DNA of 64,000 bases from Escherichia phage vB_EcoM_SYGD1, in sequence record MW883059; one strand, given 5' to 3'. The position numbers and the translations under genes are program-made. Below the pieces are notes generated by a model that saw only the letters and a program-made list of their open reading frames with translations, was not told where the DNA came from and did not search any database. Shown here piece by piece: positions 540 through 24,019 of the stretch (within the stretch, counting starts at the first letter, position 1; the number at the start of each line of letters is the position of its first letter).

Positions 540-2519
540 TTAACCTGCAAGACCAGTTAACTCATCGAAATCTGCACCAGTAGCAGTTGCGACGAAATTA
601 AGTTGGATATAATTTATACTACGAGCCGGTTGGATGTAGAATGTTGCAACAAACTCATTTCTATCAATTACTGACGGAGTGTTATTTGTTGTATCGCAAA
701 CTACACGATATTCATAAATTCCACCGAGAGCTTTAATTCCCTGTAAGTATTGGGCAGTTTCTGTGCGGAATGATGAACGAGTAAACGCGTTGTTTAATTC
801 GAACAAACGATATTTTGAACTACGTCCGATATTCGTTTTCAACATATTAAACAGACGACGAACGTTAATACGATCAAATGGAGAAGGAACAGAAGTAGCT
901 GTTTTATCACCATACAATACGTAACCATCACCACCTGTACCAGTTACTGGGTTGATAGCTTCTTGATATAAACGGTCGCGCTGAGCTTGGCGAGTTTCAA
1001 TAGCAAGTTTAATAACGTTAAGAATCTGGCCGCGATTATAACCAGCTGGAGACATCCAAGTCTGAGAAACGTTATCGGTTCTTGCACATAAACCGGCAAT
1101 ATCAGCTGCTAATGGAACCCAGCGATTGACATCATTATATTTGTCATACTGATATTTGTAGTTACCATCAATTGCTGCGTAGGTTGAACTGATATTAAAG
1201 TTATTATCAGTGTATGAACCTGTTGCGGTTCTCCAATTGACTAAGTTATCAACAGCGCGAGTTACAGGAATTCCAACTACAGTTTCGCGCGGTGGTGAGC
1301 ACAATACTAAGCAATCCTGGCGAGCATCCCCAATTGAAACGACGTGTTTTTGGACAGTAGATGCTGTTTCTAAAGATTCGCCGGCACAAGAACCCGCAAT
1401 AAACAACTGAACGTCAACAGATTCGCGGTCAGCAAAGAAGTCCCAAGCTTCCATCAAATCTCCTGCTGTTACTTCAGCATTTGATGATAATCCACCAGAC
1501 AGAGTTAAAATTCCAGAGAATCCTTCTGGCCAATTTTGTGCAGTTGCAAAAATATATTCTGAACCGCCTTTTGCGAAAAAGTCATCAATATAGATGTTAC
1601 TGTCATAAATGTCTTTTTCACCATGCTTTGTTGAAAGAACAATACTTTGAACAATAGCATCATTACGGCGAACTATAATAGCGTATTGTGAATCAGTTTG
1701 TGGTCCATATCCAAACACTGCCTTAGCAGTAGATGCGCGTGTTCCGCCACCTGGATAAATTGGGAGTAATGCAGAAGCACCTTTTGCGTAGTCAGCTTTA
1801 GATACGATTTCAATTTCGATTTTATCGCCCAACTCGCCTGGATAAAGAGCTACTACTCCTGGAATTCCATATTTTTCGAGATTTGCTTGAAATTCAACCG
1901 CTGTCATAGCAGCTTCGGCATTTTCAATCTCAGCTAATAAAATACCGGAATCAGTAATGATTTTTCCAAGAGTTATTACTGCAGCTAAACCAGATGAAGA
2001 CGAAGAAATTTCCGCGGTCCAATTAGAACCTAACGCTGGATACTCACCGACTTCTTTCGCTTTAGCGATAATTTTTGCAGTAGGAATATTAATTTTCTTA
2101 ATTTTTCCATCAGCATCTACTTCGGTAATTTTACCTTCCGTTTCAATGTCTTCTGAAACATACTTAACTGTGATTTTATCTCCAACCGCGTAGTTACTAC
2201 CTGGGGTAGAAATAGTGTATTCAATATTACCAGCAATCGGAGATGAGTTTTTAGCGGTATCTCTATCGACAGCACGCACAACTCGCAAATCATTTCCGTA
2301 TTGTAAGAAATTCATTGCAGACATAAAATAGTCAGCAGTTTCAGCTGTAGGTTGACCAAAAGTATTAACTAAATCTACTTCATTTGTAACCTGTTTGATC
2401 TGAAAAGCAGGACCCCACTGGAATTTACCGGCCAAAGCTGCTGTACCAGTAGAGTTATTAACCACGGTGCTTTGAACCGTAGTTTCTTTGAGCTCAATGC
2501 CCGGAGATAATAAAGTCAT
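540..2519 (-). CDS. 18: Tail sheath protein gp18
   Basis: 659 aa, same length as T4 gp18; position upstream of terminase genes in T4 order; late promoter TATAAATA upstream. Confidence 0.9.
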   Translation of the reverse strand: MTLLSPGIELKETTVQSTVVNNSTGTAALAGKFQWGPAFQIKQVTNEVDLVNTFGQPTAETADYFMSAMNFLQYGNDLRVVRAVDRDTAKNSSPIAGNIEYTISTPGSNYAVGDKITVKYVSEDIETEGKITEVDADGKIKKINIPTAKIIAKAKEVGEYPALGSNWTAEISSSSSGLAAVITLGKIITDSGILLAEIENAEAAMTAVEFQANLEKYGIPGVVALYPGELGDKIEIEIVSKADYAKGASALLPIYPGGGTRASTAKAVFGYGPQTDSQYAIIVRRNDAIVQSIVLSTKHGEKDIYDSNIYIDDFFAKGGSEYIFATAQNWPEGFSGILTLSGGLSSNAEVTAGDLMEAWDFFADRESVDVQLFIAGSCAGESLETASTVQKHVVSIGDARQDCLVLCSPPRETVVGIPVTRAVDNLVNWRTATGSYTDNNFNISSTYAAIDGNYKYQYDKYNDVNRWVPLAADIAGLCARTDNVSQTWMSPAGYNRGQILNVIKLAIETRQAQRDRLYQEAINPVTGTGGDGYVLYGDKTATSVPSPFDRINVRRLFNMLKTNIGRSSKYRLFELNNAFTRSSFRTETAQYLQGIKALGGIYEYRVVCDTTNNTPSVIDRNEFVATFYIQPARSINYIQLNFVATATGADFDELTGLAG

Positions 2520-2547
2520 TTTTAATCCTCTTTAATATGCTTTAATA

Positions 2548-5688
<3,141 letters not shown>

Positions 5689-19959: not shown

Positions 19960-20253
19960 CTATTTAATGAATACTTTAGATGATGCCTGAGCCACAGTAT
20001 CACCGCATGATATTGGATCAGCCATTTGAACAGCTTTCTTTCCAGTGACATATACCTTAGAAGTTCTGGGTTGTGTCACTCCGCCATGTGTTTCATATGG
20101 CTTTTTAATTTCTGTATGTTCTGTAATTGGATCACCTGCTACGAGAACAGCAATTCCTCCAGTGAATACTTTACTTTGTGTAGCATTCACAACTGTTGGA
20201 GGCCATGCTTCATGACCAGCAGTAACACATTTATCATAACTTAATCCTGACAT
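19960..20253 (-). CDS. 5.4: PAAR-type spike tip protein gp5.4
   Basis: 97 aa as T4 gp5.4; immediately upstream of gene 6. Confidence 0.7.
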
Positions 20254-20790
20254 CTATGACCTCTCATACACATAGCTTCTTAATTTATTAGCCCAACGAC
20301 TCCAATTTCCAACTATAGTTTTAGTATAATTTTTAACGAGAGTTTTTCTTACTGGAGCAGGAGGATCTGTCGGTTCAGTAGTATCAGAAGATGACCTAGA
20401 ATTACTGCCAGAACCTCCAGATTCACTTTGTTCTTGGTAGTCATATATTAATGTTACTTCGTAAGTGAATGTCTTCTGGAGGTTTTGAGGAGCTTTCCAT
20501 AAATACAACTGAGTATCAGAATCAGTAGGAAGTTCTTCCCATGAAGCAGCAGTTTTAAATTCATCGCCTAAACGATATTTCAACGCGTCATTTCCAAATC
20601 CAAACACAGATTCATATGTTCCGTATAAGCGATTTTCTTCTACTAAAACCCCAGGAGTTTCTTCGTAACTAGTTATATTTATAGATACTAACGTTTCACC
20701 TGTTTCTAATTGAGCGGTAAAGGTGACGTCGATAGAAGAACCTTCCATGGATTCTCCTAAATCAGCGCTCATTGGAAGTATATTAGCCAA
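20254..20790 (-). CDS. Hypothetical protein (gp5.1-position)
   Basis: 178 aa ORF between the endonuclease and 5.4; no motif recognised. Confidence 0.4.
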
Positions 20791-21649
20791 TTGTTGAATT
20801 CTCTAATGATGTAAATTTATAATCACATTTTTTCAAAGCTTTTAAAATTGCGTTATAACTTACATCCGGAAGGTCATGTTCAATTGCTTTTTCTCTAAAC
20901 CATTTGTATTTCTGCGGATGCGGTTTTCCCAAATCCTCCCAAAGTTTTTTGACTTTTTCTATACTAATCCAAGGTTCAACTGATCTTAGTTTTTTATTTC
21001 TAGCATCTAATCTCGATTTTCTTATCAAAGGATCATTCCATGATTGTTTCGTTCCTTCTATTTTTCCTGGATGATTGATTAATTTATTTCTGTATTCATC
21101 GGATTTCCATAAAGATTTAACAGTATTAGAAATACGAATTTTTAATGTTGGGTCATTTTCAAAAGCAGTTTTCATCGCATTACTCATTTTCTTTCGATAT
21201 TCTGGTGATGCGCATCTTTCTTTGTTTATTTTAGATATTTTCTCTGAAAATTCTTTAGTTGACGTTGATTTAGCTAATGCCTTCAATTGAGCTTTCCTAT
21301 ATTCAGGATTAGACCACATTCTCTTCAAATCTTCGGATGAAAAACCATCACCGCCGGATTTTATATTGGTACATAGAATGTCAGATGATTTATATTTCGA
21401 AATCCAATACCTTTCTCTTAAATTAAGAATTTCATAAGTAGAAACAAATTCAATTATTTCAAAATCTATTTTATAACCAGGTTTATTGCGTATCTTTTTA
21501 ATATAATCACCGGAACCTATATACTTGTCATTTTCTAAATCAAAATATCTAGATTCATGTTTACCAATATAAACACGTACTAATCCTTTCGGATTAGTAA
21601 CGGTTGTTTTATATATGTATCTAAATTGAACAGTGTTAGATTTTTTCAT
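20783..21649 (-). CDS. GIY-YIG homing endonuclease (seg-like)
   Basis: N-terminal FRYIYKTT...VRVYIGKHE...YIGSG GIY-YIG motif; repeated NPEYRK / SPEYRK / SDEYRN DNA-binding-type repeats; own late promoter. Confidence 0.7.
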   Translation of the reverse strand: MKKSNTVQFRYIYKTTVTNPKGLVRVYIGKHESRYFDLENDKYIGSGDYIKKIRNKPGYKIDFEIIEFVSTYEILNLRERYWISKYKSSDILCTNIKSGGDGFSSEDLKRMWSNPEYRKAQLKALAKSTSTKEFSEKISKINKERCASPEYRKKMSNAMKTAFENDPTLKIRISNTVKSLWKSDEYRNKLINHPGKIEGTKQSWNDPLIRKSRLDARNKKLRSVEPWISIEKVKKLWEDLGKPHPQKYKWFREKAIEHDLPDVSYNAILKALKKCDYKFTSLENSTIG

Positions 21650-21664
21650 AATTCACCTCTGAAT

Positions 21665-21672
21665 TATTTATA
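21665..21672 (-). promoter_or_regulatory. Late promoter (TATAAATA) for the seg-like endonuclease
   Basis: Minus-strand TATAAATA overlapping gene 5 stop codon, about 16 nt upstream of the endonuclease start. Confidence 0.5.
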
Positions 21673-23398
21673 AACCTACGTCTATACGGCTACCATCAAT
21701 TGTGTATTGACCAGATGAAATAGAACTCATAGATGCCATTTTTTCTGTCCAATCACCACCAACGTCCCAATCAACTGTCCCAGCAACTTTCCAAGAAAGA
21801 TTTCCATTTACTGTATTAGTTTGATTTCCTTCAACTAAAGTAGTAGCATCCCCTTTAACTGTAATGTCAGCATTACCTTCAACTACAATAGTAACATTAC
21901 CTTTGACTAGGATAGTTCCATTACCTTCAACCGTCTTAGTTTCATCGCCACGCACAAATATCGTATTGCTTCCATCTATTTGGTGAAGACGATTATCCAT
22001 GTTGTAATAAATTTCTGATCCACCGACGTTAGTCTTTTTATCACCGGCTACCAAAAAATTACCGTCAGCATTTGTTATATCATACAAATTATCAACAGTT
22101 TTTCTTGTTCTTCTTCCTGACGGTGATACTTCCTCATACGTTCCAGTCGGATGAACTAATCTGTATCGTTCTTGCCCAGGGGTATCATCAAATTCCTGAA
22201 TATGACCGCTTTCAGTTTCCATTGTGTGAACATACGGATATTCACCTTTATATGAAGAAACAGGTTCTTTGAATAAAATTCTCGAATCATTCGGAATAGG
22301 AGGGTCAGCCGGGTCAGAAGACTTTGCTACAGTAGCAGCCATTGCAGACAAAGACCTAGCTGGCGTTTTCACTTCAATACCGTATGATTCCAAATTGCCT
22401 GTAAGAATAATCATGGTAACACGGGATGCACGGCCTTTTGTTTGTTGATACCACAATGAATCACGACCGGCTTTATATGCTTTTTCCCAATCTCCGGCTA
22501 ACATAGCAGTTAACATTGTGTTAAATTTAGCTACACCGCCAACACCCATCTGAAATGCCATATTTTCTAATGCCATTTGACGAGAACGATTAACTGCTTT
22601 CCAAACTGGGCCAACTTTAGAATGTGATTTAATGTCACGTTGCATATCAGCTAAATCACGTTCAAATAAAGTTACCGCTTCTTCCATTGTAATAGAACCT
22701 GGATTTCCGGTAATTTCACGACCAACTTGTTTTGATAAAACTTTATTAATTTGGGCCATATCACGAACTGGCTGCTTCATGATAAGATGACCAATACCAA
22801 TTGTCGGATATCCTTCTGTATCCCAATAAACTTTTAGTCTTAATCCTTCATCACGGCGAAGCATTTCAGCCATTGACATATTTGGATTATCATCAGTTGG
22901 AATTTCTGATAATGGTCTATCATCAGGATTTATCGCAGTGTCTAGATTGCTATCTTGGATAATATTAGAAGACGAATCATATCCTACTTCTCCGCCTTGG
23001 TTTAATACGTTAGTATCATTTCCTAGACGTCTAGGATACTGCCCAGTTGGGTCAGAAAATCCTTCAAGTCTATTAGGTTTTTCGCGAACTATCCCACCAT
23101 ACGTGCCAAGGACAATTCCGTTAGTTTTCCATTTGTCTAAAAAATGACCATAAACTCTAGTTCCTTCTACTGGTCCTGTAACAGAACCTCCAATTCCAGA
23201 CATTGCTGCAGAAGTTATAGGTTGAATAACTGACATCCATGGCAATTTATCGGTTGGAATACCCATTACATCGCCTTGCGCTCTTTGGGGCGGATGCAGA
23301 CCAACCACACGAACACGAACGCGACCTAATTTTAATGGGTCCATTCTATCTTCAACAACACCAACAAACCAGTTGAGGTTATTACTTATCATTTCCAT
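21668..23398 (-). CDS. 5: Baseplate hub / tail lysozyme gp5
   Basis: 576 aa (T4 575); internal lysozyme motif EGLRLKVYWDTEGYPTIGIGHLI parallels the e lysozyme in this window. Confidence 0.9.
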   Translation of the reverse strand: MEMISNNLNWFVGVVEDRMDPLKLGRVRVRVVGLHPPQRAQGDVMGIPTDKLPWMSVIQPITSAAMSGIGGSVTGPVEGTRVYGHFLDKWKTNGIVLGTYGGIVREKPNRLEGFSDPTGQYPRRLGNDTNVLNQGGEVGYDSSSNIIQDSNLDTAINPDDRPLSEIPTDDNPNMSMAEMLRRDEGLRLKVYWDTEGYPTIGIGHLIMKQPVRDMAQINKVLSKQVGREITGNPGSITMEEAVTLFERDLADMQRDIKSHSKVGPVWKAVNRSRQMALENMAFQMGVGGVAKFNTMLTAMLAGDWEKAYKAGRDSLWYQQTKGRASRVTMIILTGNLESYGIEVKTPARSLSAMAATVAKSSDPADPPIPNDSRILFKEPVSSYKGEYPYVHTMETESGHIQEFDDTPGQERYRLVHPTGTYEEVSPSGRRTRKTVDNLYDITNADGNFLVAGDKKTNVGGSEIYYNMDNRLHQIDGSNTIFVRGDETKTVEGNGTILVKGNVTIVVEGNADITVKGDATTLVEGNQTNTVNGNLSWKVAGTVDWDVGGDWTEKMASMSSISSGQYTIDGSRIDVGL

Positions 23399-23972: not shown

Positions 23973-23985
23973 GGGCCCTCCTGTT

Positions 23986-23993
23986 TATAAATA
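23986..23993 (+). promoter_or_regulatory. Late promoter (TATAAATA) for genes 4-2-3
   Basis: TATAAATA about 27 nt upstream of gene 4 ATG. Confidence 0.55.
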
Positions 23994-24000
23994 TATTATC

Positions 24001-24008
24001 TATTTATA
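24001..24008 (-). promoter_or_regulatory. Late promoter (TATAAATA) for gene 53, divergent from the gene 4 promoter
   Basis: Plus-strand tatttata = minus TATAAATA about 30 nt upstream of gene 53 start. Confidence 0.5.
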
Positions 24009-24019
24009 AGGAGAATCCA

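Follow-up and report, generated by a model that had tools for sequence, protein, structure and literature searches.

Seven of the free-standing homing endonuclease genes of phage T4 are promoter-less and ride on upstream transcripts, and other endonuclease genes, namely those of I-TevI, I-TevII, I-TevIII and segB, are driven by late promoters while nested in longer transcription units (PMC2988022). Weak intrinsic terminators are found in the 5' ends of the mobE and segF open reading frames (ORFs) (PMC2988022). The window analysed here, a stretch of 64,000 nucleotides (nt) of Escherichia phage vB_EcoM_SYGD1 (sequence record MW883059), comes from a T-even phage (Tequatrovirus), and the region under study is 98–99% identical to ACG-C40, PYPS2T, fPS-2 and T6. 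On its minus strand, in the last codons of the essential gene 5, lies an ORF that is probably a free-standing Seg-type GIY-YIG homing endonuclease gene, carried by T6-like Tequatroviruses on a mobile cassette of 901 nt.

Like the gene in the window, T4 segC encodes a free-standing Seg-type GIY-YIG protein, and it is one gene away within the same late operon of the baseplate. Both proteins show the N-terminal pattern Y-x-Y...Y(I/V)G-x-H...Y-x-GSG...KYG, but given an identity of only 37% over 49 residues they are not orthologues. The window protein is twice the length of SegC, with a long helical C-terminal domain, and the sites differ, with segC at the 5.1/5.3 junction and the window gene inside the end of gene 5. 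The window gene also has its own late-promoter motif, whereas segC is classed as promoter-less (PMC2988022). The SegE-like proteins (PF19835; the products of RB68 and RB32 'segE') resemble the window protein in two respects: the GIY and YIG motifs are separated by an extended beta-hairpin, and the nuclease domain is followed by helical repeats of the form W-x-N-P-x-(Y/H). Their genes are located elsewhere (nrdC.9/nrdC.10) and, unlike the window gene, have neither TATAAATA nor a significant intragenic hairpin, and the identity is too low for a shared target specificity.

I-TevI, encoded by the T4 td intron, shares with the window protein the GIY-YIG catalytic fold and residues and a two-domain architecture, and its gene likewise has a late promoter just upstream of the ORF, inside a longer transcription unit, represented in the window by the motif only. 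Here the promoter motif still has the left half of a presumed homing site beside it, which recalls the I-TevI operator; to propose autorepression as in I-TevI would be pure speculation. In contrast to I-TevI, the window gene is free-standing, its product lacks a zinc finger and any detectable I-TevI DNA-binding domain, and a hairpin sequestering the ribosome-binding site is weak and unsupported. The terminators at the 5' ends of mobE and segF resemble a structure in the window gene in having a stable stem and a 4-nt loop about 50 nt into the ORF, kept here by compensatory changes; unlike theirs, the U-tract here is weak or absent, and the structure may not terminate transcription at all. Aeh1 mobE in nrdA and T4 mobA in the 39/60 topoisomerase, like the window cassette, landed within the coding sequence of an essential gene. 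Unlike these, the window cassette leaves its gene unsplit by supplying a replacement for the last seven codons, with gp5 gaining one Leu.

The endonuclease gene and its insertion site

Homology of the window protein to the GIY-YIG family is established, from sequence, at the profile level only. A family profile matched the catalytic domain of I-TevI (1LN0) with E=1.7e-6, and hhalign against I-TevI gave 96% probability (E=1.2e-9), with E79 of the window protein falling on E75 and N95 on N90, as they also did in HMMER. The tyrosines of the YIY (residues 11–13) and YIG (27–29) motifs aligned to those of I-TevI GIY/YVG in both HMMER and hhalign. Together with E79 and N95, these two motifs were invariant in an alignment of 13 family sequences; a YIGSG motif follows at residues 43–47. 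The three-stranded beta-sheet/alpha-helix fold of GIY-YIG domains was found as well. The protein matched the PHROG 314 'homing endonuclease' family at 1e-25, and its closest named relative is the RB68 protein annotated as SegE (28% identity over 186 aa, E=4e-16). Within the 13-member family, at E<0.01, Pfam PF19835 was matched by seven sequences and PF01541 by four. The C-terminal region, some 180 residues predicted to be helical, is presumed to be the DNA-binding domain; no NUMOD match was found by Pfam in the query, while three relatives match NUMOD3 and two match I-TevI_DNA-bd.

A search of 5.8 billion proteins returned three close lineages only, at 99%, 86% and 78% identity. Beyond these lie relatives at about 35% identity that carry the motifs GYIYK...VYIGKH...YLGSG...E...YNIA.GG. 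Several GenBank records already label this ORF 'seg-like' or 'homing endonuclease', and no paper describing the gene was found in the literature searched. By its sequence, the protein is a Seg-type GIY-YIG homing endonuclease at a new site and not an orthologue of any of SegA-G.

Comparison of the window with the lineage of phage F2 showed 63 codons changed synonymously and 31 non-synonymously within codons 1–144 and, since synonymous changes dominate, the protein is under purifying selection. Codons 145–288 are about 93% identical in nucleotides between the same two lineages, the third lineage being equally far from both. The 3' half of the gene (20783–21215, minus strand) is 90–97% identical between Tequatrovirus and Mosigvirus copies, whereas the 5' half and the flanks reach just 65–75%, a pattern suggesting that the half encoding the presumed DNA-binding region was recently exchanged by recombination.

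The insert-specific DNA replaces a short segment of the uninterrupted allele (Table 1), with its left junction after CAATTGATGG and its right junction before ATTGGCTAA. The uninterrupted allele reads CAATTGATGG, ATCGAGGATTGAC and ATTGGCTAATATACTTCC in succession, and in the occupied allele CAATTGATGG is followed by an insert running from TAGCCGTATAGACGTAGGTTTATAAATAATTCAGAGGTGAATTATG to TTCAACA and then by ATTGGCTAATATACTTCC. The cassette contains a substitute for the last seven codons of gene 5, a Leu codon and a new stop, and gp5 is therefore intact and encoded by a single full-length ORF. The tail is recoded from GGA TCG AGG ATT GAC ATT GGC TAA to GGT AGC CGT ATA GAC GTA GGT TTA TAA, with 10 of 21 nt changed, mostly synonymously. 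The C-terminal Leu that comes with the insert makes gp5 one residue longer here than in T4, and its added codon (tTA), the new stop (TAA) and ATA together create TATAAATA. At the other edge the former stop of gene 5 now terminates the endonuclease ORF, in the original frame of gene 5, and the stop/start overlap with gene 5.1 is thereby preserved.

The 122 nt to the left of the insert and the 944 nt to its right are 100% identical to the flanks in the insert-free phage Elenatom. If the target is nearby, the immunity of carriers must stem from the recoded or interrupted 13-nt segment. The recoded tail matched no gene 5 end of Merlin, KP1, PS49 or RB69, and no donor genus was identified among these. 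The idea that the endonuclease ORF closes with ~30 nt of a decayed duplicate of the end of gene 5 was rejected; apart from the shared ATTGGCTAA, the local alignment was no better than that of shuffled sequences, 761 to 4939 of 5000 of which matched its score.

In all carriers gp5 ends in ...DVGL (21673–21668, minus strand), which places an extra Leu and an Ile-to-Val change at the tip of the beta-helix where the PAAR protein gp5.4 binds. The docking of gp5.4 on the gp5 C-terminus has been described (PMC12407873), and the gp5.4 protein is identical in carriers and non-carriers.

The endonuclease ORF was present in 32 phage records sharing these flanks, and the gene 5/5.1 junction was uninterrupted in 485, nearly all at a minimum of 99% identity and with T4 and T2 included. 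An earlier note on this DNA had read the ORF as an endonuclease gene inserted downstream of gene 5. The insertion was borne out by these counts, which also speak against the finding that would have refuted the note, a conserved non-nuclease gene at this place in relatives. Two features had escaped that note, namely that the insert lies within the coding end of gene 5 and that the promoter motif arises from the insert's own added codon and new stop.

Carriers make up about 6% of Tequatrovirus records and 2% of Mosigvirus records, and among the latter 3 of 153 are occupied (ZQ3, F2). The genes flanking the insert in ZQ3 and F2 are Mosigvirus-like, with about 65–75% identity to the window. Immediately beside the insert, both phages have T4-type sequence, ACAATTGATGG on the left where empty Mosigvirus alleles have ACTGTTGACGG, and ATTGGCTAATATACTTCC on the right where they have ATTGGGTAATATATGGCACAAATACTTCC; F2 has an additional T4-like patch of about 60 nt upstream. 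T4-type markers beside the insert in Mosigvirus copies therefore argue for lateral transfer with short co-conversion tracts. The comparison indicates that the gene moved between Tequatrovirus-type and Mosigvirus-type genomes, carrying a few T4-type flanking nucleotides with it.

A search of IMG/VR for further variants gave one identical copy, and the JGI metagenomes gave only relatives at 36% identity or less. The nearest paralogue, from Klebsiella phage vB_Kpn_AM_K5 (28% identity), is not at gene 5, and being at a different locus it provides no evidence of an ancient association with that gene. T4 itself is without the window gene and has segC and 5.3 between 5.1 and 5.4. Both inserts are present in T4_ev151 and SP21535, including a 196-aa segC-like gene, and the window has the 5/5.1 insert alone. 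With two independent insertion sites, the gene 5–6 interval (19960–21692 in the window) is therefore a two-site hotspot for homing endonuclease genes.

Table 1. Positions, within the 64,000-nt window, of the endonuclease gene, its insert and the neighbouring features.
Feature	Position	Strand	Remarks
Insert-specific DNA	21692–20792	minus	901 nt, in place of the 13 nt (ATCGAGGATTGAC) that uninterrupted alleles have
Cassette-borne gene 5 3' end TAGCCGTATAGACGTAGGTTTATAA	21692–21668	minus	encodes (G)SRIDVGL*, as against (G)SRIDIG* in empty alleles
Displaced original gene 5 last codons and stop, ATTGGCTAA	20791–20783	minus	ATT GGC TAA; now closes the endonuclease ORF as its final two codons and stop, same frame; holds the 5.1 TTG
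Seg-like GIY-YIG homing endonuclease ORF	21649–20783	minus	288 aa; ATG at 21649, TAA 20785–20783
GIY-YIG nuclease domain	21628–21350	minus	residues ~8–100
C-terminal helical region	21337–20786	minus	residues ~105–288; four repeats resembling W-x-x-(P)-E-Y-R-x-K, with a pair of helices at the terminus
TATAAATA, T4 late-promoter (-10) consensus	21672–21665	minus	reads tTA-TAA-ATA across the gene 5 stop
Shine-Dalgarno GAGG	21659–21656	minus	6 nt ahead of ATG
Predicted AU-rich hairpin at the ribosome-binding site, ATAATTCA-GAGG-TGAATTAT	21667–21648	minus	Shine-Dalgarno in 4-nt loop; A and U of AUG paired
Stem-loop TACTAATCC-GAAA-GGATTAGTA	21599–21578	minus	perfect 9 bp, in the ORF between the GIY and YIG codons
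Gene 53	23972–23382	minus	
Gene 5 (gp5 baseplate hub/tail lysozyme)	23398–21668	minus	576 aa; stop TAA 21670–21668
Gene 5.1	20790–20254	minus	178 aa from TTG (20790–20788)
Gene 5.4 (PAAR spike tip)	20253–19960	minus	directly after 5.1; no segC or 5.3 between
Gene 6	19951–17969	minus	
TATAAATA upstream of gene 53 (P53)	24008–24001	minus	presumed late promoter of the insert-containing operon

The late-promoter motif and predicted RNA structures

All positions given in the earlier note proved correct, that of TATAAATA across the gene 5 stop among them, and its gap of about 16 nt between motif and start codon corresponds to 15 nt here and 16 nt in T6-type copies. The motif is real in the sequence and conserved, and the GenBank record of fPS-2 independently annotates a 'predicted late promoter' at this site, one of two (the other being P53) ahead of a terminator after gene 8. 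In five copies of the cassette that are 69–98% identical, TATAAATA, the Shine-Dalgarno sequence and the ATG are invariant and the motif-to-ATG spacing is kept at 15–16 nt, while 5 of the 21 nt directly ahead of the motif vary between them. The credibility of the motif comes from its position and from its invariance in five copies while neighbouring codons vary, and not from how often it occurs in the window. The earlier note had also taken the insert to be integrated into the late transcription of the operon, an inference that is consistent with the orientation of the ORF, the P53 motif and the lack of a canonical terminator.

In the K5 paralogue, the TAA of the upstream gene lies within the near-consensus motif GATAAATA, 8 nt ahead of the ATG. 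This arrangement hints that a 5' edge with the stop codon inside a promoter may be a portable feature of the lineage.

Two RNA structures were predicted near the start of the ORF. The AU-rich hairpin around the Shine-Dalgarno sequence, predicted in four of five variants, could form on read-through transcripts only, as in I-TevI. The second structure, a stem-loop within the ORF, has a folding energy of -15.4 kcal/mol with its extension (z=-5.2 against shuffled sequences) and was flagged by a terminator scan. In the alignment 97.8% of cells are paired and all three variable pairs are compensatory, a covariation that rests on about three independent lineages. In the F2/ZQ3 lineage all six paired wobble positions have changed with pairing kept (T-A to A-T, T-A to C-G and T-A to C-G). 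The region is more stable than nulls with resampled synonymous codons in all three lineages (P=0.007, 0.046 and 0.037), and the K5 paralogue has a non-homologous 10-bp hairpin at the same place (P<0.001). An intragenic hairpin as a general property of Seg genes was rejected, given that RB68 segE, T4 segC and two metagenomic Seg genes gave P=0.08–0.93. The stem is followed by CGUGUUUAUAUU, a weak U-tract, in the window, by CGAAUAUAUAUA in F2/ZQ3 and by AAAACACAG in the K5 paralogue. A terminator role is doubtful because the U-tract is absent in F2/ZQ3 and in the paralogue. A scan of 20200–22000 with Rfam returned nothing relevant.

Proposed course of homing and competing explanations

In late infection, the gp55-RNA polymerase would start at about position 21659 and produce a short-leader mRNA from the cassette's own TATAAATA, and read-through from P53 would also cover the endonuclease gene. 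In mixed infections, the protein would cut genomes that lack the insert, either at the gene 5/5.1 junction or close to it; the uninterrupted form of this junction is identical in about 460 phages. Double-strand-break repair would then copy the cassette into the cut genome, and the recoded tail together with the interruption would give carriers immunity to their own endonuclease. The stem-loop about 50 nt into the ORF would probably damp expression, like the weak internal terminators of mobE and segF, and this is the least certain step.

Several points weigh against this scheme. Seg enzymes often cut hundreds of base pairs from their own gene. A Pfam search with the query protein gave no GIY-YIG match, the thresholds of PF01541 and PF19835 not being reached, and in the hhalign alignment the position of I-TevI Arg27 is a gap to which no residue aligns. 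The number of TATAAATA occurrences in the window, 15 against 11.4 +/- 3.6 expected, is not above chance, and part of the conservation of the motif could reflect coding or stop-codon constraint among about three independent lineages only. Comparison leaves a hairpin of the I-TevI/segB type, sequestering the ribosome-binding site, unsupported for want of covariation, with zero compensatory changes across the five copies and substitutions that break pairs. The poly(U) expected directly after the intragenic stem is poor in the window and absent in F2/ZQ3 and K5. The literature searched held no cleavage, homing or transcript data for this gene.

The motif could instead be incidental to an AT-rich junction with TTA-TAA codons and remain unused, with expression through P53 read-through and the gene's own Shine-Dalgarno sequence only. 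Besides the chance-level count, this would be in keeping with the fact that 5 of the 8 motif nt belong to the Leu and stop codons and with the seven promoter-less free-standing genes of T4 (PMC2988022). The Leu codon concerned, however, is an addition found in no insert-free gp5. TTA and TAA could each be replaced by a synonymous codon, but no change is seen in any of the 8 nt where the lineages differ at 5 of the 21 preceding nt, and the spacing of the motif to the Shine-Dalgarno sequence and ATG is conserved. Given also that the nearest paralogue has an upstream TAA embedded in GATAAATA just ahead of its ATG, an unused motif appears unlikely, and a promoter of the cassette's own is preferred.

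A second alternative concerns the downstream edge of the cassette. In the annotations of T4, T6 and fPS-2, gene 5.1 comprises 495 nt (164 aa) and starts at an ATG corresponding to position 20748, behind GGAG. Were this the true start, a spacer of 34 nt would separate the two genes, with no overlap or coupling to the endonuclease ORF. Such a start has in its favour a strong Shine-Dalgarno sequence (GGAG, 5-nt spacing) that is conserved in RB69, its use in the RefSeq annotation of T4, and the rarity of TTG as a start codon.

Comparison across the Straboviridae overturned the idea that the TTG is an artefact of ORF calling. A tblastn search with the 178-aa form gave alignments that start at its first residue in essentially every one of 1240 records of Straboviridae, in every genus sampled and down to 26% identity. 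The N-terminus MA(N/Q/D/S)ILP is conserved in all genera despite synonymous changes. Gene 5.1 of Merlin, KP1, AB1I1M-1, PS49 and RB69 is annotated from an ATG that corresponds to the TTG by homology and stands 0–7 nt from the gene 5 stop, and in Merlin, KP1 and PS49 there is no Met (QEG or IEG) at the position annotated as the start in T4. One diverged copy of the cassette itself has ATG in place of TTG, plus three synonymous changes in the I-L-P codons. A start at ATG 20748 is accordingly quite improbable. Judged by these alignments, the TTG is most probably where gene 5.1 begins, and the start in the T4 reference (NC_000866 79680–79721; 20748–20790 in the window, minus strand) is probably 14 codons short. 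The 8-nt overlap between the endonuclease ORF and the next ORF, as claimed in the earlier note, is present and conserved, and uninterrupted genomes have the same 8-nt overlap (aTTGgcTAA) between genes 5 and 5.1.

Least probable of the three alternatives is a GIY-YIG derivative, domesticated or devoid of catalytic activity, that has ceased to be a mobile endonuclease and is kept for a host-phage function (for example DNA binding, or regulation near oriE or the baseplate operon): the missing Pfam match, the gap at Arg27, the tight wiring of the cassette into the expression of genes 5 and 5.1 and the strong purifying selection, which would also fit a useful host function, are set against a patchy distribution with a precise empty site elsewhere, retained catalytic Tyr, Glu and Asn positions, the same Arg-less pattern in T4 SegC, which is listed as active in the review of Edgell and Belfort (PMC2988022), and a cross-genus transfer with donor flank markers as predicted for homing. 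R34 of the window protein aligns to R30 of I-TevI and is not conserved among relatives.

Beyond the preferred reading of a mobile Seg-type endonuclease gene, a joint interpretation of the cassette is offered tentatively and is itself rather unlikely. The cassette would be a self-contained 'gene-tail replacement' module, with a portable stop inside a late promoter at its 5' edge and the displaced stop re-used at its 3' edge, so keeping the next gene coupled. It would further contain an undescribed, non-terminator regulatory stem-loop kept by wobble-wobble covariation and recurring with unrelated sequence in the nearest paralogue. If so, such a cassette could land in the 3' end of a late gene, bring this gene to a clean end and drive its own transcription. 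As a by-product, each chain would bear the extra C-terminal Leu at the tip of the gp5 spike, the docking site of the gp5.4 PAAR protein.

The surrounding operon and the meaning for T-even phages

Further promoter-like sequences were observed around the cassette. Gene 5.1 contains, in sense orientation, a further exact copy of TATAAATA (20676–20683, minus strand), which insert-free genomes of the T4 type have as well and from which late transcription of 5.4 and 6–8 could start anew. The divergent TATAAATA motifs of gene 53 (24008–24001, minus strand) and of the gene 4 homologue (23986–23993, plus strand) form a perfect 9-bp inverted repeat, TTATAAATA...TATTTATAA (23985–24009). At the 3' end of the endonuclease gene, an antisense sigma-70-like sequence, TTGAAT-18-TATAAT (10 of 12 matches; 20794–20823, plus strand), points into the ORF and towards oriE in gene 5. 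The scan for sigma-70-like sequences overall found 12 against 16.9 expected, which is not above chance.

The replaced gene tail, the probable promoter built on a stop codon and the covarying hairpin are worthwhile details and not a new kind of system. The locus represents ordinary T-even phage biology and leaves the current understanding of homing endonucleases unchanged. It adds an uncharacterised Seg-type endonuclease at a new site, present in the classic phage T6. It also shows how the coding end of an essential structural gene can be invaded without harm, with the tail rebuilt, a probable promoter made from the new stop and the downstream start kept. For crosses of T6 with T2 or T4, a zone of marker exclusion around gene 5 and oriE would be predicted.

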